From the sequence record OL631478.1: a DNA stretch of 64,000 nt; one strand, given 5' to 3'. The notes beneath the pieces were generated by a model, which searched no databases, was not told the DNA's origin, and saw only the letters and a program-made list of their open reading frames with translations. The DNA comes from Escherichia phage ECML-1. Of the stretch, positions 2,879 through 39,444 are shown piece by piece (position 1 is the stretch's first letter; each line of letters begins with the position of its first letter). The position numbers and the translations under genes were made by a program.

Positions 2879-3319
2879 TTAGAAAGGTTTTCTACGTTGC
2901 TTGTTAATGTTAGCTTTCATAGCAGCTAAATGGTTTTGCTGTTCAATCAGTCGTGAACGTTCTTGATGACTAAGTGCCATAGTGTTCACATTCTCAATCG
3001 CTTGAGTGGCTTGCTTTAAAGCACGACCAATCTTACCAGACATTTTACGTTTTGCAATAGTTGCTTGATGTTTAGGTTCAACCACACGATAACCAACACC
3101 CATTGAAGCAACCAGATAAATCTTCTCTTCTTTAAGAAGCTTCTCAATAAACTTCTCAAGTCGGTTTAGACGTGTAAGCGCATAAGCCTTCATTTCATCT
3201 TCGTACTTAACAATGTCACCTTGATAAGTTGGCTTCACAATACCTAAGAAGGTGTCCATCTCAGAATGTGATACAGTGTCACCGTAACTAAACTTTGCTG
3301 CTAATGCTTTTGTATTCAT
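2879..3319 (-). CDS. hypothetical protein
   Basis: 146 aa ORF. Confidence 0.5.
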   Translation of the reverse strand: MNTKALAAKFSYGDTVSHSEMDTFLGIVKPTYQGDIVKYEDEMKAYALTRLNRLEKFIEKLLKEEKIYLVASMGVGYRVVEPKHQATIAKRKMSGKIGRALKQATQAIENVNTMALSHQERSRLIEQQNHLAAMKANINKQRRKPF

Positions 3320-14963: not shown

Positions 14964-16010
14964 ATGGAGAAGTACACATTAACAAAGCTTCCCGATTCAG
15001 TTACACATATCTTTATTGACTCTGACAGCATTGCCTATAAAGGTGCTTGTGTAGTTGAGAAAGCAAAGTATAAATACGTTAATAAACTCACAGCAGAAGA
15101 ATCTGAACCATTTGATAATGCGAAAGATGCTGCAAGATGGTTAGCAGACCAGAGAATCCTTGTGGAAGAGCTTGGCCTGACATTTGATGAAGATGAATGG
15201 GAAAGACAGACTTGGAAAGAAGCTAAGAGTGAAAAAGAAGCTATCATGGCTACTCAACAGGTGCTTCAGGAATGGCTTAAGGTTGTTGGGAAAGAAAGAA
15301 CTTGGGTAGGCTATTTAACAGAGAAAGGTGTGCATAAACATAAAGACATTAAAGGTCTTGAGCACCAATATCAAGGTAACCGTAAAGATGCTGTCACACC
15401 AACACACTTAGTCGCTTGTCGTGAATATCTTTTATCCAGACCAGAGTTCAAACTGATTCTTGATGGATTTGAAGCTGACTCTATCGTTATTGCTAAAGCT
15501 GAAAAGATGGGAAAAAAAGCTGCCTTAATGAGTATTGATAAAGACCTTCGCCAAGCTGAAGGTACTTACTGCATTGATATGACCTATGAAAAATCACCTT
15601 TAATTTTCATTGCTGATAACAACGTTGGTGAAATTTGGGATTGTCCAATAAAATCGACACCAAAAGCTAAGAAGACAGTTGGTGTAGGTTTTAAGTTTCT
15701 TTGTTATCAAGCTGTTGCTGGTGATAATGCGGATAATTATTTTGGTTTAAAGGGTGTTGGTAAGGCTGCTGTGATGAAGGCTCTTGAAGGGAAAACAACT
15801 TACAAAGAGTGTCTTGATGCAATTTACGAGTTATATGCTAAGAAAGACTCCTATACTTATGTATCATGGGATGGTCAGACAATCACCAGAACACCTTTAG
15901 AATTAATGCAGCAACACTTTTTCTTAGCTTATCAGGAAAGAAACAAGAAAGACGATTTTACTTTTGATAAGTATGGGTGGACACCAAATGTTAACTCAAC
16001 AAACTCTTAA
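14964..16010 (+). CDS. 5'-3' exonuclease (T7 gp6-like, FEN family)
   Basis: Motifs IFIDSDSIAY, GNRK, DGFEADS, SIDKDLRQ and VAGDNADNYFGLKGVG follow the T7 gene 6 exonuclease pattern. Confidence 0.6.
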   Translation: MEKYTLTKLPDSVTHIFIDSDSIAYKGACVVEKAKYKYVNKLTAEESEPFDNAKDAARWLADQRILVEELGLTFDEDEWERQTWKEAKSEKEAIMATQQVLQEWLKVVGKERTWVGYLTEKGVHKHKDIKGLEHQYQGNRKDAVTPTHLVACREYLLSRPEFKLILDGFEADSIVIAKAEKMGKKAALMSIDKDLRQAEGTYCIDMTYEKSPLIFIADNNVGEIWDCPIKSTPKAKKTVGVGFKFLCYQAVAGDNADNYFGLKGVGKAAVMKALEGKTTYKECLDAIYELYAKKDSYTYVSWDGQTITRTPLELMQQHFFLAYQERNKKDDFTFDKYGWTPNVNSTNS

Positions 16011-16479
16011 AGAATACCTGCACTATGACCCCGAAACAGGGGTCTTTACTTGGATTAAGAAGTCTGCTAAGCACACAAAAATTGGTTCTGTTGCAGGTAC
16101 AAACTTAAGGGGATACATCAGAATCTATTTGTTTGGTAAGGGTTATTATGCACATACACTGGCTGTTCTGTATATGGACGGTTACCTTCCTGAGTGTGTT
16201 GACCATAAAAACCATGTAACCCTAGATAATCGCTGGATAAATCTTAGGGCATGTACGTTATCAGAGAACCAATGTAATAGGTTACTCAATAAGAATAATA
16301 AATCAGGTGTTAAAGGTGTGTACTACAAAAAACAGTATGGTAAGTGGGCTACACAGATAACTTTTAAGAAGAGAGTTTACTTCTTCGGCAACTATGACAC
16401 GATTGCTGAAGCAGCAGAGGTTGTAAATAGGGAACGCCAACGTTTACACAGAGAGTTTGCTAATAAAGGTGATGAATGA
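15964..16479 (+). CDS. HNH homing endonuclease with AP2-like DNA-binding domain
   Basis: YYAHTLAVLYMDGYLPECVDHKNHVTLDN then SGVKGVYYKKQYGKWATQITF; true start may be an internal Met. Confidence 0.55.
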   Translation: MISMGGHQMLTQQTLKEYLHYDPETGVFTWIKKSAKHTKIGSVAGTNLRGYIRIYLFGKGYYAHTLAVLYMDGYLPECVDHKNHVTLDNRWINLRACTLSENQCNRLLNKNNKSGVKGVYYKKQYGKWATQITFKKRVYFFGNYDTIAEAAEVVNRERQRLHREFANKGDE

Positions 16480-16976
16480 GAAAAATAAAAGGTTTTGGCA
16501 ATTGCCCTGAATATGGTCACTGGATTTCACTATGTGGTGAAGTTGACCCAGCAAAGCACTTTGGTTTTGTCTACCTAGTGTACTGTAAAAAGACTGGACA
16601 GTACTATTTGGGTAAGAAACAGCTTAATAGTGTGACCAAAAGAAAAGTTGCTGGGAAGACTCGGAAGAAGGTAGTCACTAAGGAGAGTGATTGGATGACT
16701 TACGAAACCTCTTCTGAGTATATTAAAAAAGATATTGAGAGCTTTGGAAAAGAATTTTTTGACTTTTACATTATTCAGACCTACTACACAAAAGGTGGCC
16801 TAGTCTATGGTGAAGCAAACCTTCAACATAAATTCGATGTAATGACAAAAAGGATTGACTCGAAGCTCAGACTCTTCTACAATGCCAATATTGCAGCAAT
16901 TAAGTTTATTACTAAAGAAACTTATGAAGATGCTGAAAAAAGAATCCATAAGGTAATGAAAGCAAATTGTGCTTGA
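16476..16976 (+). CDS. putative GIY-YIG homing endonuclease
   Basis: N-terminal GFVYLVYCKKTGQYYLGKK resembles the GIY-YIG motif. Confidence 0.45.
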   Translation: MRKIKGFGNCPEYGHWISLCGEVDPAKHFGFVYLVYCKKTGQYYLGKKQLNSVTKRKVAGKTRKKVVTKESDWMTYETSSEYIKKDIESFGKEFFDFYIIQTYYTKGGLVYGEANLQHKFDVMTKRIDSKLRLFYNANIAAIKFITKETYEDAEKRIHKVMKANCA

Positions 16977-26541: not shown

Positions 26542-26808
26542 ATGGGAATTTTAGGTAATATGAAAGCTGGATTCTTGAAGGCACTGGAAAAAGCAGCAGC
26601 AATTGTTTCTATGACTGGAAAGCAGGTCGGTGTAGATGCTTCAGCGGTTGCACAGGTTCTTGCAAGCCAAATTGAACAGCAGCCTTACATCTACGTAGGA
26701 CGTGGTAAAGGTGGTAAGAAACAAGCCCACCGCCAATCTGGTGCAGCAGCTATTAAACGAGCAGCTAAGAAAGCTCGTAACCGTAAACGTAACAAGAAGG
26801 TTAAATAA
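26542..26808 (+). CDS. small basic protein
   Basis: 88 aa with Lys/Arg-rich C-terminus. Confidence 0.4.
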   Translation: MGILGNMKAGFLKALEKAAAIVSMTGKQVGVDASAVAQVLASQIEQQPYIYVGRGKGGKKQAHRQSGAAAIKRAAKKARNRKRNKKVK

Positions 26809-26810
26809 CC

Positions 26811-27131
26811 ATGAGCAAAGTTTATAACACTCGTAAATTACAGATTTTCGTACTGTGCCAGTTTATGGCTAAAGAATACAACTTCTACTATTGTGGTACA
26901 GGTTTTATTAGCGATGATGATGGCTCATACCTCCCATTCAAAGAAGCTGTAAAACTCTTTAATGAAGAGAAAAGCTCTAAGAAAGATATTGAAAAGGTTA
27001 AGCTAACCTACAGCAAGAAAGATAAGAAGATTATCTGCCTAGATAACTTTGTGAAAGTTACTGGAGAAGCAAAAGAGTTTATGGATGAGAGTGATATTTC
27101 ATTCACAAGCATCTTGAAAGTAGCTCAGTAA
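26811..27131 (+). CDS. hypothetical protein
   Basis: 106 aa ORF. Confidence 0.45.
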   Translation: MSKVYNTRKLQIFVLCQFMAKEYNFYYCGTGFISDDDGSYLPFKEAVKLFNEEKSSKKDIEKVKLTYSKKDKKIICLDNFVKVTGEAKEFMDESDISFTSILKVAQ

Positions 27132-27143
27132 ACAGATACTATA

Positions 27144-27169
27144 AGGGGACTGTAAAGGTTCCCTTTTTA
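27144..27169 (+). terminator. intrinsic terminator
   Basis: ggggac...gttccc hairpin followed by tttttatttt. Confidence 0.5.
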
Positions 27170-27182
27170 TTTTGGAGGTAAA

Positions 27183-27698
27183 ATGTATCTGTCAAACCTG
27201 AAACGTTCGGTTGCAATGTCAGTTCTAAGACTCAGCTTTGATGAGCGTCAAGAGTTTATAGACTCCCACAAATATGACCCTTCAAATTCTAATCACATGG
27301 TTCTTTGGAATCGTGATAACTTCCGTGAAAGAGCACTTGTCCGTTATTACCCACACTACACAATAGATAACCTGTATGAATGGTGTGTTGTGAAGAACAC
27401 CATTGCAACACTGAACAATCTTTGCAGGTATACGGGTAAGCAAACATTTACATTAGGTCATCACAAACCTGTTACAAAAGGTGGTGAACATCACTGTGCA
27501 AACTGGTTTATCCAAACTAAAACTGATAACCAGAAGCAAGGAGATAGCCTCCTAAGTATCCCTAAGATGACCTATGAAGAGCAAGAGAAATATATCAAAA
27601 ATAATATGCCAGATGTGCTTGACAACAACTATACAGATTTGGCAATATCTCTCCTGTTGAAGTTCGAGACAGTTTATAGGGCAACTTATAATGGCTAA
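27183..27698 (+). CDS. putative HNH-family nuclease
   Basis: LGHHKPVTKGGEHHCANW resembles an HNH core; weak. Confidence 0.35.
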   Translation: MYLSNLKRSVAMSVLRLSFDERQEFIDSHKYDPSNSNHMVLWNRDNFRERALVRYYPHYTIDNLYEWCVVKNTIATLNNLCRYTGKQTFTLGHHKPVTKGGEHHCANWFIQTKTDNQKQGDSLLSIPKMTYEEQEKYIKNNMPDVLDNNYTDLAISLLLKFETVYRATYNG

Positions 27699-27969
27699 AG
27701 AAAAGTGGGAGATTTTACCATTAGTCAGTGAAGGTGGTAATGGTTGTGAGATGTACATGATACGTGGTCATGTTCCAGAACCAATTGCACTTGAGATGGT
27801 AAACAACTTTACAGATGGTTCTTACAAAGACTTAGGAGAGCCAACTATAAAGCATCAATGGGTAAAGCCTGTACCAGACAGCACAGGTAACTGTAGTGTA
27901 CTTTACCACGTTGTAGACCCTGTAAAATGCAAATCTGCAATGGCAGTAACAAACGTAACCTTTGATTGA
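27691..27969 (+). CDS. hypothetical protein
   Basis: 92 aa ORF. Confidence 0.4.
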   Translation: MAKEKWEILPLVSEGGNGCEMYMIRGHVPEPIALEMVNNFTDGSYKDLGEPTIKHQWVKPVPDSTGNCSVLYHVVDPVKCKSAMAVTNVTFD

Positions 27970-27984
27970 GATAGAGAGAAAACT

Positions 27985-28866
27985 ATGAAAACTGTTATTG
28001 AAGCCGTCATCACCGCACAAGAGAAATTCTTCCACACAGAAAAATTTAATATCATCCAATTCCCATCTGGAGAAATTGGTGGAAACTTCTCTGAAGATTT
28101 TGTTAAGTTTGCTGAGCGTAATGCTGGTAAGATTGATAATGTTATATTTACTGTACAGGGGTATGACAAAGATACACTGTTTGCATTAGCTTTGGCTAAG
28201 GATGCCGTTGACAGTCTTGTTCCCCAGAAATCAGCGATGAAAACCGTTGTTTTCGGGTTCTTACCAAATGCTCGATATGACCGCCACATGTTCAAAGGTG
28301 ATGCAGCAGCACTGAAAGTCTTTGCCAACCTTGTTAATGCAATGGGTTTTGATGCAGTATGTGCTCTTGACCCTCACAGTAATGTTGCAGAAAACTTATT
28401 TAAGTGTTTTCAGAGCATGAAGCAAAAAGATGTGGCAGTACACTTTGCAAGTGACCCACGCATTGATTTCTTAGTAGCCCCAGATGCAGGTGCAGCTAAG
28501 AAGACTGAAGATGCCGCTAAAGAGGTAGATAAACCATATATCACAATGTCTAAGGTGCGCAATCTTAAGACTGGAGAAATCACTGGTATGCGAATCCTTG
28601 ATGATGTTGATTTGACAGATAAAACTGTCATGATTCTTGATGATATTTGTGATGGTGGTCGAACCTTCGTAGAAGCAGCGAAACATCTTCGTGAAGCAGG
28701 TGCAAAACGTGTGGAACTCTATGTAACACATGGTATCTTCTCTAAAGGTGTTGAAAACCTTCTTGACAATGGTATTGACCATATTTACACTACAAACTCT
28801 TTAGGCGAAGCTAAAGACCGTGGCTTAACACACTATGGTCAAGTTACTGTAGCAACCATTGATTAG
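27985..28866 (+). CDS. ribose-phosphate pyrophosphokinase-like protein (Prs-like; candidate ADPR-PP synthetase of a NARP1-type pathway)
   Basis: PRTase-fold signature VMILDDICDGGRTF plus N-terminal Prs-like domain; 293 aa; two genes upstream of the NAMPT-like gene. Confidence 0.65.
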   Translation: MKTVIEAVITAQEKFFHTEKFNIIQFPSGEIGGNFSEDFVKFAERNAGKIDNVIFTVQGYDKDTLFALALAKDAVDSLVPQKSAMKTVVFGFLPNARYDRHMFKGDAAALKVFANLVNAMGFDAVCALDPHSNVAENLFKCFQSMKQKDVAVHFASDPRIDFLVAPDAGAAKKTEDAAKEVDKPYITMSKVRNLKTGEITGMRILDDVDLTDKTVMILDDICDGGRTFVEAAKHLREAGAKRVELYVTHGIFSKGVENLLDNGIDHIYTTNSLGEAKDRGLTHYGQVTVATID

Positions 28867-28874
28867 GTAACAGT

Positions 28875-29366
28875 ATGAATAAGGGTTATTTTGAAAAATA
28901 CCTAATATATGAACCAGATACAGGTTTATTAATTTGGAGAGTAACCCTTTGCAGTACCGCTATTGCTGGTAATGTGGCTGGCACAAGGTCTAAGAAGGGT
29001 TATATCCAAGTCCAGATAAATAAGAATAGGTACTATGCACATAATATTGCATGGATTATGTCTGGAGGTGAGATACCAAGTGGATATGAGATAGACCACA
29101 TAGACCTTGATAAAGCTAATAATAAGTTGGAGAACTTAAGACTTAGCACAAAGTCACAAAATCAGAGGAATAGAGGTATATACAAGAATAATAAAACTGG
29201 TGTGAAGGGTGTAAGTTTTTGTAAACAAACAGGTCTTTACAAAGCAAGAGTCACGCTTTACCATAAAGAATACTTTTGTGGAAGATTTAAAACGGTAGAA
29301 GAAGCAAAAGAAGCTGTAATTAAAAAGCGAATAGAACTTCATGGTGAGTTTGCAAGACATAACTAA
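28875..29366 (+). CDS. HNH homing endonuclease with AP2-like domain
   Basis: Paralogous to 15964..16479 (YYAHNIAWIMSGGEIPSGYEIDHIDLDKANN; TGVKGVSFCKQTGLYKARVT). Confidence 0.55.
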   Translation: MNKGYFEKYLIYEPDTGLLIWRVTLCSTAIAGNVAGTRSKKGYIQVQINKNRYYAHNIAWIMSGGEIPSGYEIDHIDLDKANNKLENLRLSTKSQNQRNRGIYKNNKTGVKGVSFCKQTGLYKARVTLYHKEYFCGRFKTVEEAKEAVIKKRIELHGEFARHN

Positions 29367-29380
29367 GAGAGAGATAAAAT

Positions 29381-31162
29381 ATGAGTAAGTCACTTTACGC
29401 AGTACCAGCAGGTCTTAATGCAGATGCTTACAAGGCATCACATATATATCAGTATCCAGATGCTACGCAATATCTTATGTTGAACCTGACACCACGTAGT
29501 GACAAATGGTTTAACAGTCCATTAGCAATTGATGGTGTAGTCGCTTTTGGTATTCAACGTTTTGTTAAAGATTACTTGATAGACCACTGGAATGCCACCT
29601 TCTTTGAACGTGACAAAAAAGAAGCAATTGACGAAATCTTAGAAGTCATGAACGGTGTTCTGGGCAAAGATGCTATTGGTCGAGAGCATTGGGAAGCACT
29701 TCACGACTTAGGTTATCTGCCAGTCGAAGTATACGCTGTAGAAGAAGGCACAGTTGTTCCTATGCGTGTCCCAATGATTGTCTTCCAGAACACTGTTTCA
29801 GGTTTCCATTGGGTAGCAGGTTATCTGGAAGATGCTTTCTCTGCTGAGATTTGGAAGGCTTGCACTATTGCAACTATTGCATTGCATTACAAACGCATCT
29901 GTAAGAAGTGGGCTGACCTTACTTGTGACAACGACTTGCATCTGCCCTATCAGTGTCATGACTTTGCTATGCGTGGTATGTCAGGCTTTACTGATGACGC
30001 ATTTAATGCTGTAGGTCACTTAACCAGCTTTAAAGGGACTGATAGCTTCCCTGCTGTATACACGGCTAAACGAATCTATGGACAGTCCTACCCAATCTCT
30101 GATATTGGTAGTTCTGTACCAGCCACTGAGCACTCTGTAATGTGTGCAAACATTGCTTGGGAAGGTGGTAATGAGTTGATTGAAGAAGAAAGACGCTTTA
30201 AAGGTGAGTTACAAACCTTCCGTCGTTTCTTAACAGAAACTTACCCAACAGGTATTGCAAGCATTGTTTCAGATACTTATAACTTCTGGAGAACTGTGTC
30301 AGAAATCTTACCAGCACTTCGTAAAGAAATTATGGAACGTGATGGCAAACTGGTAATTCGCCCTGACTCTGGAGACCCTGTACATATTGTCACAGGTTAT
30401 AAAGCAATCCACTTAGAATGTGCTAAGAAGGCTTATTACGAGCACCTAAGCAAGCTGGAAGCCAGTGACACAATGTTGAATGCTGTTCTGAACATGAAGC
30501 TTGAGAACATCAACTATGGTATTGCTGGATGGCTACTGTCAGAAGGCTACGAGATGGTTGTTGACAGAGAAGACTTTGAAGTTGCTGATACAGTGATGTT
30601 GAAAAATGCTTATATGGTTGGTTCTGCAAACGTTGTAACACGTCCTGTAGCTGAGATTGATGGAGCTATTAAGACACTGTACAACATCTTTGGGGGAACT
30701 ATTAACTCTAAAGGCTTTAAAGTACTGGATGAGCATATTGGACTTATTTATGGCGACTCTATCACGTTGGAACGTGCAAATGAAATACTGAAGCGTTTGT
30801 ATGAAATGGGTTTTGCAAGCTCTAACGTAGTGTTTGGTGTAGGTTCTTACACTTACCAGTACATGACTCGTGACACCTTTGCATTTGCTGTCAAAGCAAC
30901 CCTTGCAAGCATTGGTGGTAAAGAGATTATGCTTGCAAAAGACCCTAAAACAGATAGTGGTGTTAAGAAGTCTGCTTTTGGTGGTGTAGCACCTATGTGG
31001 GATGGTGAAAATCTGAAAGCTGTAGATGGCTATGGGTTCCAGAGCTTTGCAGATGCACTTGAACATCCAGCTTGTGCTTTACGTCTAGTCTTTAGCGACT
31101 CTGAGCAGTTCGGCTACACAACTCTTGGTGATATTCGAAATAATATTGACAAGCAGCTTTAA
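29381..31162 (+). CDS. nicotinamide phosphoribosyltransferase-like protein (NadV/NAMPT family; candidate Namat)
   Basis: 593 aa with NAMPT-family architecture (YKASHIYQYP N-terminus, conserved central and C-terminal blocks). Confidence 0.7.
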   Translation: MSKSLYAVPAGLNADAYKASHIYQYPDATQYLMLNLTPRSDKWFNSPLAIDGVVAFGIQRFVKDYLIDHWNATFFERDKKEAIDEILEVMNGVLGKDAIGREHWEALHDLGYLPVEVYAVEEGTVVPMRVPMIVFQNTVSGFHWVAGYLEDAFSAEIWKACTIATIALHYKRICKKWADLTCDNDLHLPYQCHDFAMRGMSGFTDDAFNAVGHLTSFKGTDSFPAVYTAKRIYGQSYPISDIGSSVPATEHSVMCANIAWEGGNELIEEERRFKGELQTFRRFLTETYPTGIASIVSDTYNFWRTVSEILPALRKEIMERDGKLVIRPDSGDPVHIVTGYKAIHLECAKKAYYEHLSKLEASDTMLNAVLNMKLENINYGIAGWLLSEGYEMVVDREDFEVADTVMLKNAYMVGSANVVTRPVAEIDGAIKTLYNIFGGTINSKGFKVLDEHIGLIYGDSITLERANEILKRLYEMGFASSNVVFGVGSYTYQYMTRDTFAFAVKATLASIGGKEIMLAKDPKTDSGVKKSAFGGVAPMWDGENLKAVDGYGFQSFADALEHPACALRLVFSDSEQFGYTTLGDIRNNIDKQL

Positions 31163-31176
31163 AAGTATATGATAAG

Positions 31177-31197
31177 AGGCTCCTACGGGAGCCTTTT
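31177..31197 (+). terminator. intrinsic terminator
   Basis: ggctcc-tacg-ggagcc followed by ttttt. Confidence 0.7.
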
Positions 31198-31215
31198 TAA
31201 TTTCTGGAGAAGATT

Positions 31216-38664: not shown

Positions 38665-39444
38665 ATGGGTATTGTAAAAGTTGTAAAAGGTAACTTACTG
38701 GCTGCCTTCAAAAACACAGATATTGAGTTAATTGCTCATGGTTGCAACTGTCGTAACCTCATGGGTGCTGGAATCGCTCAAAAAATTGCTAAGATTTTCC
38801 CAAAAGCTGAAGAAGCTGACCGGAAATTCCATAAAAAGTTTGGCTACAGTGCTCATGATATCGGATACCAGATGGTTGGTGAGGTGTCACATGCTCGAAC
38901 GGAGTATGGTTACATTTTTAACCTATATACACAGTTGGATGTTGGGAAGTGTGCATCATACCGATACTTAGTGGAGTCACTAGAAAAACTCCGTAAATTT
39001 TGCTGGCTGCACAACATTCGTAAGATTGGTTTACCCATGATTGGGGCAGGTATAGGCGGTTTAGATGCACAAGCTGTGAAAAGCCTCATTAATAGTGTTA
39101 TGTATAACGTTGATGTGTACCTCTACGTCTATGATGAAGCAATGGCAAGTGTAGTTACCCCTAAGTATGCTACCTCAGCACCACAATTCTATGATGGTGT
39201 CGTGCTAAGTGACGGGAAGACTAATCAAGTTACCCTCTATCAGCTTGTTGATGGCAAGGTTGAGGTTAGTTACCCTCTGGTTAGTGAGATGGGTATGTGT
39301 AACAGTGAAATGTTCCCAGTTGACCCGTTTGGAAGATATGAAGGGGTGTTCTTTGATAACTACCCAGCAGCATACATCTACACAACAAATCAGGATGAAG
39401 TTCACTACTTGCTGTATTCTAAAAAGTTCAAATTCATAAGCTGA
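38665..39444 (+). CDS. macro-domain (ADP-ribose binding/processing) protein
   Basis: IELIAHGCNCRNLMGAGIAQKI and GLPMIGAGIGGLD resemble the two glycine-rich macro-domain motifs. Confidence 0.45.
   Translation: MGIVKVVKGNLLAAFKNTDIELIAHGCNCRNLMGAGIAQKIAKIFPKAEEADRKFHKKFGYSAHDIGYQMVGEVSHARTEYGYIFNLYTQLDVGKCASYRYLVESLEKLRKFCWLHNIRKIGLPMIGAGIGGLDAQAVKSLINSVMYNVDVYLYVYDEAMASVVTPKYATSAPQFYDGVVLSDGKTNQVTLYQLVDGKVEVSYPLVSEMGMCNSEMFPVDPFGRYEGVFFDNYPAAYIYTTNQDEVHYLLYSKKFKFIS

Follow-up and report, generated by a model that had tools for sequence, protein, structure and literature searches.

A probable NARP1 operon with an HNH endonuclease gene in its intergenic spacer in Escherichia phage ECML-1

NAD+ reconstitution pathway 1 (NARP1) was discovered through genes 79-80 of phage Bas63 (Escherichia phage JohannRWettstein, MZ501086, a Felixounavirus) (Osterman et al., bioRxiv 10.1101/2024.02.11.579819). 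Deletion of these genes sensitised Bas63 about 20-fold to SIR2-HerA, and ADPR-pyrophosphate (ADPR-PP, m/z 720.010) was detected only when the genes and the defence system were present together (bioRxiv 10.1101/2024.02.11.579819). The counter-defence effect was retained in a host without pncC and nadR. In vitro, the enzymes of phage SpbetaL1 convert ADPR and ATP to ADPR-PP, and ADPR-PP and nicotinamide to NAD+ (same reference). Bas63 Adps was one of the queries that defined a phage-specific Adps clade, and in 97% of this clade a Namat homologue is found in the immediate vicinity.

The pathway is understood as follows. NAD+-depleting defences, such as SIR2-HerA, DSR1/2, type I Thoeris and SEFIR, split NAD+ into ADP-ribose and nicotinamide. 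Adps then moves pyrophosphate from ATP onto ADP-ribose, and Namat couples the resulting ADPR-PP with nicotinamide. In this scheme NAD+ arises directly, and neither NMN nor an NMN adenylyltransferase (NMNAT) is needed.

Here, we analyse a locus in a 64,000-nucleotide stretch of Escherichia phage ECML-1 (OL631478.1), referred to as the window. An earlier note, made from the sequence alone, had read a Prs-like and a NAMPT-like gene in this stretch as a candidate NARP1-type module. The phage is a Felixounavirus, for which 261 related phage records were found, with phage ekra as the top match (95.6%).

Layout of the locus and its transcription unit

The relevant features of the window, with the evidence for each, are as follows.

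27114..27165, + strand: predicted upstream boundary, a sigma70-like promoter match (TTGAAA-17-TACTAT, 27114-27142), then a terminator-like hairpin (27143-27165) and a T-run (consensus scan, fold)
27183..27698, + strand: 171-aa ORF, phrog_3500, with a weak HNH-like motif; first gene of the unit, orthologue of bas63_0077 (PHROG)
27691..27969, + strand: 92-aa ORF, phrog_4726, overlapping the preceding ORF by 8 nt; orthologue of bas63_0078 (PHROG)
27985..28866, + strand: adps, predicted ADP-ribose diphosphokinase (Prs-like), ADPR + ATP to ADPR-pyrophosphate (98% identity to Bas63 Adps)
28875..29366, + strand: free-standing HNH_3 / AP2-like homing endonuclease gene in the adps-namat spacer (Pfam and PHROG matches)
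29381..31162, + strand: namat, predicted nicotinamide ADP-ribose transferase (NAMPT-like), ADPR-PP + nicotinamide to NAD+ (97% identity to Bas63 Namat)
~30392..30670, + strand: lineage-specific Namat insertion of ~80 aa (residues ~343-427), gapped in the alignments with PDB structures as well as in the profile spans of NF006629 and phrog_448
31146..31197, + strand: predicted downstream boundary, an 11/12 sigma70-like promoter match (31146-31173) over the namat stop codon, then a strong terminator-like hairpin (31174-31197) (consensus scan, fold)
38665..39444, + strand: candidate accessory gene for a Macro-domain protein (residues ~3-160) with a ~100-aa C-terminal extension, Adpp homologue (Pfam, PHROG)

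The Prs-like, HNH-AP2 and NAMPT-like genes are found exactly where the earlier note had placed them, as three + strand ORFs of 293, 163 and 593 aa separated by 8 nt and then 14 nt, and its family labels agree with Pfam, NCBIfam and PHROG scans, albeit with a weak AP2 match. The two enzyme genes share a strand, a single gene separates them, and the namat start lies 514 nt past the adps stop codon, which places a Namat gene in the vicinity of adps. In the window phage and Bas63 alike, the locus is located between nrdG and rIIA.

Together with the two ORFs upstream, the three genes probably form a single transcription unit of five co-oriented ORFs (27183 to 31162) between terminator hairpins. The upstream hairpin, whose boundary function is a prediction, folds with -14.1 kcal/mol (z = -2.1) and the downstream one with -17.2 kcal/mol (z = -3.05); the downstream element as a whole (31146-31197) is 100% conserved in Bas63 and tootiki. 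The promoter match at 31146 does not appear to represent a repeated motif, as a search modelled on this site yielded 6 matches where 3.7 were expected, no significant excess. The neighbouring ORFs at 26542, 26811, 27183, 27691, 31216 and 31533 match only PHROGs of unknown function, except for a weak match of the 171-aa ORF at 27183 to phrog_2214 'HNH endonuclease' (E=2.2e-6); this ORF scores 310 bits against phrog_3500 and has no Pfam match. The 92-aa ORF at 27691 is kept in phage FM4b despite the loss of the NARP1 genes.

Identity of the two enzymes

The protein encoded by adps is identical to bas63_0079 in 287 of 293 residues (98%), at equal length and without gaps. By both marks of a canonical PRPP synthetase, equivalog score and N-terminal Prs domain, it falls short: it is below all curated Prs equivalog cut-offs of NCBIfam (best 111 vs 296, 79 vs 438 etc.), and its Pfam matches are confined to the C-terminal parts, Pribosyltran (E=1e-11) and Pribosyl_synth (E=1.3e-9), with no N-terminal Prs domain detected. 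The sole Prs-type model that it passes, TIGR01251 ribose-phosphate diphosphokinase (136 bits, cut-off 113), is a broad subfamily model. The score against phrog_619 is 333 bits. In a pairwise alignment with 4twb, K190 (in SKVRN) coincides with the lysine of the flexible catalytic loop of Prs, which is K197 in B. subtilis Prs, K162 in SpbetaL1 Adps and K192 in Gary Adps. Mutation of this lysine is inactivating in both phage enzymes (K162A in SpbetaL1, K192A in Gary). By these sequence comparisons, the window Adps is a member of the phage-specific Adps clade, apart from cellular Prs.

Namat shares 578 of 593 residues with bas63_0080 (97%), again at equal length and gap-free. It matches the NAPRTase (E=6.8e-35) and NAMPT_N profiles, NF006629 (471 bits, cut-off 405) and phrog_448 'nicotinamide phosphoribosyl transferase' (673 bits). 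The protein is nearer to SpbetaL1 Namat than to Nampt enzymes, with 434 bits to the SpbetaL1 structures 9w5w/9w5x, compared to 179 bits for Xanthomonas Nampt and ~145 bits for human NAMPT. The catalytic core is kept: H251 (in ATEHS) and R327 (in VIRPDSGD) align with their SpbetaL1 counterparts, R327 matching SpbetaL1 R306 and human R311. Function is abolished by mutants of SpbetaL1 R306 (PMC12774641) and by H243A in Gary Namat. The clamp that selects for ADPR-PP consists of a loop with a stacking residue and a helix with two aromatics, and in Bas63 the loop has a lysine followed by a stacking aromatic (PMC12774641). These residues are present in the window Namat, in the loop TPRSDKWF (K42, W43) and as Y490/Y494, which align with F392/Y396. 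The ~80-aa insertion has identical length in Bas63 and is missing from SpbetaL1 Namat and Nampt. According to tblastn it is restricted to Ounavirinae (253 records). It is peripheral to the NARP1 question.

The database names suggest a different role. In Pfam, NCBIfam and GenBank, the two proteins go by ribose-phosphate pyrophosphokinase and nicotinamide phosphoribosyltransferase, and the pair could accordingly boost canonical salvage, with PRPP made by the Prs-like enzyme, NMN by the NAMPT-like enzyme, and NAD+ completed by host NadR/PncC. We consider this highly improbable, as the 97-98% identical Bas63 proteins still counter defence without pncC and nadR and ADPR-PP was detected, the Prs-like protein is under every Prs equivalog cut-off, and Namat has the clamp residues for ADPR-PP. 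Since Namat keeps some PRPP-dependent NMN synthesis in vitro (PMC12774641), a secondary role in salvage is possible. A related route, NARP2, combines NadV with Nmnat. It was rejected because no NMNAT was found: as the earlier note had said of the window, Pfam scans of its ORFs of at least 45 aa detected no NMNAT/cytidylyltransferase domain (concatenated chunks, covering nearly all ORFs, with NrdA, NrdB, NrdD and DNA polymerase left aside in the rescan). For the ~23 kb of the window phage beyond the window, the equivalent part of Bas63 was scanned, and the ten hypothetical proteins of its structural module contain no NMNAT domain; Bas63 has no NMNAT annotation either. The combination that the earlier note had named as counter-evidence, an NMNAT gene elsewhere and clustering of the pair with canonical enzymes, was thus not found in the window or the equivalent region of Bas63, and the profile comparison that it had proposed came out on the side of Adps and Namat.

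The locus is therefore very probably an orthologue of the NARP1 operon of Bas63, as the earlier note had suspected. The 97-98% identity to experimentally characterised proteins decides the NARP1 question. From this identity and the conserved key residues, we infer that the window phage has the same chemistry and anti-defence phenotype. NARP1 in this phage is an already known system from the lineage of the published archetype and no new biology, because it was discovered and tested in the same genus. A reader of the sequence alone was nevertheless able to identify a genuine anti-defence module. Across this phage group, the GenBank names 'ribose-phosphate pyrophosphokinase' and 'nicotinamide/nicotinate phosphoribosyltransferase' are misleading as to function, and should be replaced by Adps and Namat.

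The endonuclease gene between adps and namat

The protein encoded between the two enzyme genes matches HNH_3 (E=5.6e-19) and phrog_99 'HNH endonuclease' (228 bits). Its AP2 match is weak (E=3.7e-4; 21.2 bits, under the gathering score of 33.3). According to the earlier note, the pair is split by a homing endonuclease. An HNH gene does lie between the two genes; 'split' is overstated, because the insertion is intergenic and the coding sequences of adps and namat remain intact and uninterrupted. What it replaces is a spacer of 45 nt that includes a conserved hairpin.

The HNH sequence is present in 61 of ~259 related phage records, FelixO1 included, and always in a single copy per record. All six carriers that were sampled have an identical junction, an intact ORF and the same three-gene arrangement. 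Their mean pairwise identity is 97.6% in the HNH gene, compared to 89.8% and 94.9% in the flanks. When 6 genomes with the HNH gene were compared to 6 without it, the sites that co-segregated with the gene were all close to the junction: the stop codon of Adps, the base preceding the namat ATG, and nucleotides 5 and 9 of namat. Long co-conversion tracts were rejected on the same genomes, because the farther flanks are reshuffled whatever the HNH status. A paralogue with 39% identity is located at 15964-16479, adjoining a GIY-YIG endonuclease gene. With an intact nuclease domain, presence/absence polymorphism at a single site, and uniformity above that of its flanks, the gene has the features of a typical free-standing homing endonuclease gene. 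It has taken the place of the ancestral spacer and hairpin, most likely as a selfish passenger outside the pathway. The free-standing phage HNH-AP2 endonucleases of phrog_99 likewise combine HNH_3 with an AP2-like region, occupy intergenic sites, show presence/absence polymorphism, and have several paralogues per genome. Compared to these, nothing unusual was seen in the window gene.

Two other views of the insertion have to be considered. It might have crippled the operon, by polar effects or by decoupling the enzymes, so that the module in the window phage is a decaying remnant. The insertion removed the conserved intergenic hairpin, natural loss of the module is known from phage FM4b, which retains ~250 nt only, and in the ekra record a 2-bp indel lies close to the start of namat. 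Decay is nevertheless highly improbable, as neither adps nor namat is truncated and every key residue is kept, the arrangement is intact in every sampled carrier while the HNH sequence recurs in dozens of records, and the spacing on both sides of the HNH gene is tight, with no terminator-like hairpin in either spacer (8 nt, 14 nt). Even less likely, the middle gene could be a functional accessory of the pathway, comparable to the Macro-domain Adpp or the RyR-domain RyDEP. Gene order lends this idea some appeal, since the Vibrio phage Gary order Adps-Adpp-Namat puts an accessory enzyme at the same position, and RyDEP is located inside the NARP1 locus of DyoEdafos. However, the protein has HNH_3 and AP2-like matches and no Macro or RyR signal, and identification as Adpp or RyDEP was rejected on these grounds. 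Moreover, most phages of the genus do not have the gene, among them Bas63, in which NARP1 was validated by experiment, and the paralogue of the gene resides elsewhere in the genome beside another endonuclease gene. A homing endonuclease gene within a full-length NARP1 operon is the reading that we prefer.

The HNH-carrying arrangement is without the intergenic hairpin of Bas63, and the relative expression of Adps and Namat could therefore differ between the two. The natural variants (HNH-plus, HNH-minus and module deletion) are ready comparisons for the influence of operon architecture on counter-defence.

A distant Macro-domain gene, and relation to described systems

The Macro-domain protein encoded at 38665-39444 exceeds the Pfam Macro gathering score (26.8 bits, threshold 22) and matches phrog_335 'phosphatase' with 289 bits. 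It is 28% identical to the characterised Gary Adpp (E=2e-13), and 36% identical to the NARP1-associated Macro protein of JG004 (E=3e-17). Its H25 and N28 (in AHGCNC) match Adpp H24 and N27, mutation of which abolished function (bioRxiv 10.64898/2026.01.28.702374). The gene lies 7.5 kb downstream of the NARP1 operon, and thus outside it, while NARP1-AP has Adpp, an ADPR-1''-phosphatase, within the operon. Members of the family are also found in T4-like phages that have no NARP1 and in FM4b, whose NARP1 genes were lost. Two Macro alleles within the genus are highly divergent (41% identity).

It is conceivable, if rather doubtful, that Felixounaviruses possess an extended pathway of the NARP1-AP type that operates in trans via this protein. 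If so, the Macro protein would convert ADPR-1''-phosphate (aRES, RES-domain defence product) to ADPR for Adps, and the phages would escape from aRES as well. In that case, an arms race at the phosphatase step would account for the divergence of the alleles. The lack of linkage to the operon is probably the reason why operon-based surveys left out this gene, which is a lead on resistance to RES-type NAD+ phosphorolysis.

Among the described systems, the window locus is most similar to NARP1 of Bas63, with which it shares the genus, the genomic position, the protein lengths (293 and 593 aa), 98% and 97% identity, and the Ounavirinae-specific Namat insertion. Bas63 differs in having the 45-nt spacer with hairpin and no endonuclease between adps and namat, and in carrying, past the namat terminator, one further gene (bas63_0081, 114 aa) that is missing from the window. 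The biochemically reconstituted NARP1 of Bacillus phage SpbetaL1 (PMC12774641) follows the same two-enzyme logic. Its Namat (9W5W/9W5X) aligns over the full length with 434 bits, and both proteins have the catalytic histidine and arginine and the aromatic residues of the clamp helix. However, SpbetaL1 Namat has ~490 aa and is without the ~80-aa and ~15-aa insertions of the window Namat, and in its clamp loop Arg40 stacks on the adenine, whereas the window protein, like that of Bas63, has a lysine followed by a tryptophan.

The NARP1-AP operon of Vibrio phage Gary (bioRxiv 10.64898/2026.01.28.702374) also consists of three genes with one between adps and namat, but there the middle gene encodes the Macro-domain phosphatase Adpp, and in the window an HNH endonuclease. 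Compared to Gary Adpp, the window Macro protein is encoded 7.5 kb off the operon, has ~100 aa of extra C-terminal region, and shares 28% identity. NARP2 of Vibrio phage KVP40 (NadV and Nmnat) is likewise a phage system for NAD+ restoration with a NAMPT-family enzyme. However, it requires an NMN adenylyltransferase and PRPP, whereas in the window no NMNAT domain was found and the partner gene of the NAMPT-family enzyme is adps.

The Prs-like and NAMPT-like genes and their relation to Bas63 NARP1

The three open reading frames lie exactly where the earlier note had placed them, all on the plus strand, and family scans confirm the Prs-like, HNH and NAMPT-like labels that it gave them. The spacers are only 8 nt (ORF1/ORF2) and 14 nt (ORF2/ORF3).

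27985-28866, plus strand: ORF1, Prs-like gene (adps), 293 aa
28875-29366, plus strand: ORF2, HNH gene, 163 aa
29381-31162, plus strand: ORF3, NAMPT-like gene (namat), 593 aa

ORF1 matches the phosphoribosyltransferase and PRPP-synthetase-associated domains, as well as TIGR01251 (136 bits, cut-off 113) and phrog_619. ORF2 matches HNH_3 (E=5.6e-19), with a weak, sub-threshold AP2 match (E=3.7e-4), and ORF3 matches NAPRTase, NAMPT_N, NF006629 (471 bits) and phrog_448 (673 bits). By megablast, the region 27000-32000 matches 261 phage records, nearly all of them from Felixounavirus, i.e. FelixO1-like myoviruses of Escherichia, Salmonella, Shigella and Citrobacter; the closest match is phage ekra, with 95.6% identity. 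The gene order is standard for the genus: nrdA, nrdB, glutaredoxin, nrdD, nrdG, small ORFs, prs-like, (HNH), nampt-like, small ORFs, rIIA, rIIB.

Escherichia phage JohannRWettstein (Bas63, GenBank MZ501086), in which NARP1 was discovered, is likewise classified in Felixounavirus. Its genes bas63_0079 (882 nt) and bas63_0080 (1782 nt) equal adps and namat of the window in length and genomic position, and direct, gapless comparison of the proteins finds 287/293 identical residues for the Prs-like and 578/593 for the NAMPT-like protein. Judged by this sequence identity, the gene pair of the window is orthologous to the type NARP1 system, a known system whose published archetype comes from this congeneric phage. 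Bas63 without its two NARP1 genes is ~20-fold more sensitive to SIR2-HerA, and NAD+ collapses in cells infected by the deletion mutant. ADPR-pyrophosphate (m/z 720.010), the product of Adps, is seen only when the NARP1 genes and the defence system are present together, and the effect of Bas63 NARP1 is still seen when the host lacks pncC and nadR (bioRxiv 10.1101/2024.02.11.579819).

The alternative is NARP2, the NadV plus Nmnat route, which the earlier note had disfavoured because it saw no NMNAT-like gene in the window. Pfam scans of nearly all the ORFs in the window with at least 45 aa agree, detecting no NMNAT-type domain. The window covers ~64 kb of the ~87-kb genome, and the missing part corresponds to the structural module of Bas63, which stood in for it: no NMNAT is annotated there, and ten of the larger hypothetical proteins that it encodes gave structural-protein matches only. 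NARP2 is therefore not supported. Comparison of the pair with characterised Adps/Namat and canonical Prs/NadV, as the earlier note had suggested, sides with NARP1. The best solved-structure matches of the window Namat are 9w5w and 9w5x (434 bits), the Namat structures of Bacillus phage SpbetaL1, against 179 bits for bacterial Nampt and ~145 bits for human NAMPT. The clamp loop reads TPRSDKWF (K42, W43) and agrees with the published pattern, in which Lys at the third loop position is followed by a residue that stacks on the adenine, "e.g. Bas63 Namat" (PMC12774641). Helix residues Y490 and Y494 align to F392 and Y396 of the SpbetaL1 enzyme, R327 aligns to R306, and H251 is the conserved catalytic histidine. 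The window Adps passes the broad Prs subfamily model only and falls far under every curated Prs equivalog cut-off (e.g. 111 vs 296 bits), and Pfam detects no N-terminal Prs domain in it. Its K190 aligns to the catalytic-loop lysine, the site of inactivating mutations in both published studies. Together with the Bas63 orthology and the lack of an NMNAT in the scanned sequences, the clamp and catalytic residues support the NARP1-type interpretation.

Compared with SpbetaL1 Namat and all Nampt structures, the window Namat has an insertion of ~80 aa (30392-30670, residues about 343-427). Matches to it come only from Ounavirinae (253 records), and the functional Bas63 enzyme shares it. A second, smaller insertion (~15 aa) lies near residue 258.

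The HNH gene between adps and namat

The gene pair had been described as split by a homing endonuclease. The HNH gene does lie between the two genes, but neither is interrupted: in a junction alignment of the window and ekra (with the HNH gene) against Bas63 and tootiki (without it), the HNH gene and an 8-nt leader stand in place of a 45-nt spacer, and adps and namat are both intact. The HNH sequence occurs in 61 records, FelixO1 included, as a single copy each; the module itself occurs in ~259. The insertion is a common polymorphism, annotated already in dozens of GenBank records.

In a sample of six genomes with and six without the HNH gene, all six carriers share an identical insertion junction and have an intact HNH ORF. 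Perfect co-segregation with the gene is confined to the junction, namely to the Adps stop codon (TAG vs TGA/TAA), the base before the namat ATG (T vs G), and namat nt 5 and 9, and the flanks beyond are reshuffled in the twelve genomes whatever their HNH status. Among the carriers, the HNH gene is more uniform than its flanks, with a mean pairwise identity of 97.6%, compared with 94.9% for namat and 89.8% over the final 600 nt of adps. The pattern fits a putative free-standing homing endonuclease that would have spread recently among these genomes. Related genes are present elsewhere in the window:

15964-16479: HNH_3/AP2-like paralogue, 39% identical to the HNH protein of the NARP1 locus
16476-16976: SegE-type GIY-YIG gene, adjoining the paralogue
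61639-62196: HNH gene inside the tRNA cluster

With the paralogue beside a SegE-type gene, the genome is therefore rich in such elements. The 471-aa product of 56229-57644 (plus strand), a gene immediately ahead of the tRNA genes, has DUF2828 and DUF7788 domains.

The displaced spacer, 45-46 nt long in HNH-less Bas63 (L005, 3628-3672), tootiki, Andreotti, REP8, EC6 and BPS17S6, contains a hairpin (GGGGCT-TGAA-AGCCCC, -11.5 kcal/mol) with a conserved stem, variable loops (TGAA, TAAA, TTCAAA, TTTA) and a short T-run after it. No equivalent is found in the window, and HNH-carrying genomes have lost the hairpin, which in HNH-less genomes may serve in attenuation or RNA stability. Its loss might alter the Adps:Namat expression ratio.

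Operon context and variation around the module

Strong terminator-like hairpins are located at 27143-27165 and, directly after the namat stop, at 31174-31197. A sigma70-like promoter match stands immediately before each of them (27114-27165 and 31146-31197 in all), so that a -10 element abuts the hairpin at both ends. The window, Bas63 and tootiki share the 31146-31197 element with 100% identity, so that it is better conserved than the coding sequence beside it. Between the hairpins lie five tightly packed co-oriented ORFs, which we infer to form an operon: adps, the HNH gene, namat, and two small upstream ORFs.

27183-27698, plus strand: 171-aa ORF, phrog_3500, weak HNH-like motif
upstream of adps, plus strand: 92-aa ORF, phrog_4726

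Conservation of both small ORFs extends to Bas63 and to Salmonella phage FM4b (L003, PP068124), which has lost NARP1, and we claim no functional link between them and NARP1. FM4b is a natural NARP1-minus Felixounavirus: nearly the whole adps-HNH-namat module is deleted, leaving ~250 nt (3001-3248) annotated as two tiny ORFs, and the flanking genes are kept.

Right after the namat terminator, Bas63 has an extra 114-aa gene, bas63_0081 (phrog_20372; L005, 5508-5852), which is absent from the window (31198-31215) and tootiki; several other relatives have a ~350-bp insertion somewhere in the post-namat region. Near the namat start, ekra (L001, about 8440) has a 2-bp insertion ~65 nt into the gene, which may be genuine or a sequencing artefact, and the CDS annotated there begins further downstream and encodes 561 aa; namat of radambza (L009) is 15 nt longer in its 5' region. 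In many relatives the match to the module begins only at query position 54 or ~277 (window 27985-28260, 5' adps), and identities across the final 600 nt of adps fall into two classes, ~87-89% and ~94-96%. Taken together, the two observations suggest mosaic recombination within adps.

A Macro-domain protein and the accessory genes of NARP1

Inside other NARP1 operons, two accessories have been described. One is Adpp, a phosphatase with a Macro domain (NARP1-AP, active against aRES), and the other is RyDEP, a glycosidase with a RyR domain. The HNH gene is neither, and is thus ruled out as a known accessory. A Macro-domain protein is encoded elsewhere in the window:

38665-39444, plus strand: Macro-domain protein (Pfam Macro, phrog_335), Tk.4-like, with a ~100-aa C-terminal extension

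It scores 26.8 bits against Pfam Macro (gathering score 22) and 289 bits against phrog_335 ('phosphatase'), and is a homologue of Adpp: it is 28% identical (E=2e-13) to the characterised Adpp of Vibrio phage Gary and 36% identical (E=3e-17) to the NARP1-associated Macro protein of JG004. Adpp residues H24 and N27, whose mutation abolishes function (bioRxiv 10.64898/2026.01.28.702374), are kept as H25 and N28. The protein is only 41% identical to the copies in Bas63 and most congeners, and 100% identical to that of Salmonella phage FSL SP-107. The same family occurs in 2,825 phage records, some of them from T4-like phages for which no NARP1 is reported, and FM4b retains its Macro 'phosphatase' gene, which both count against a dedicated link to NARP1. 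Such a link would be a lead rather than a finding. No Escherichia or Salmonella phage appears in the literature list of Macro proteins associated with NARP1, presumably because the Felixounavirus gene lies 7.5 kb from the operon.
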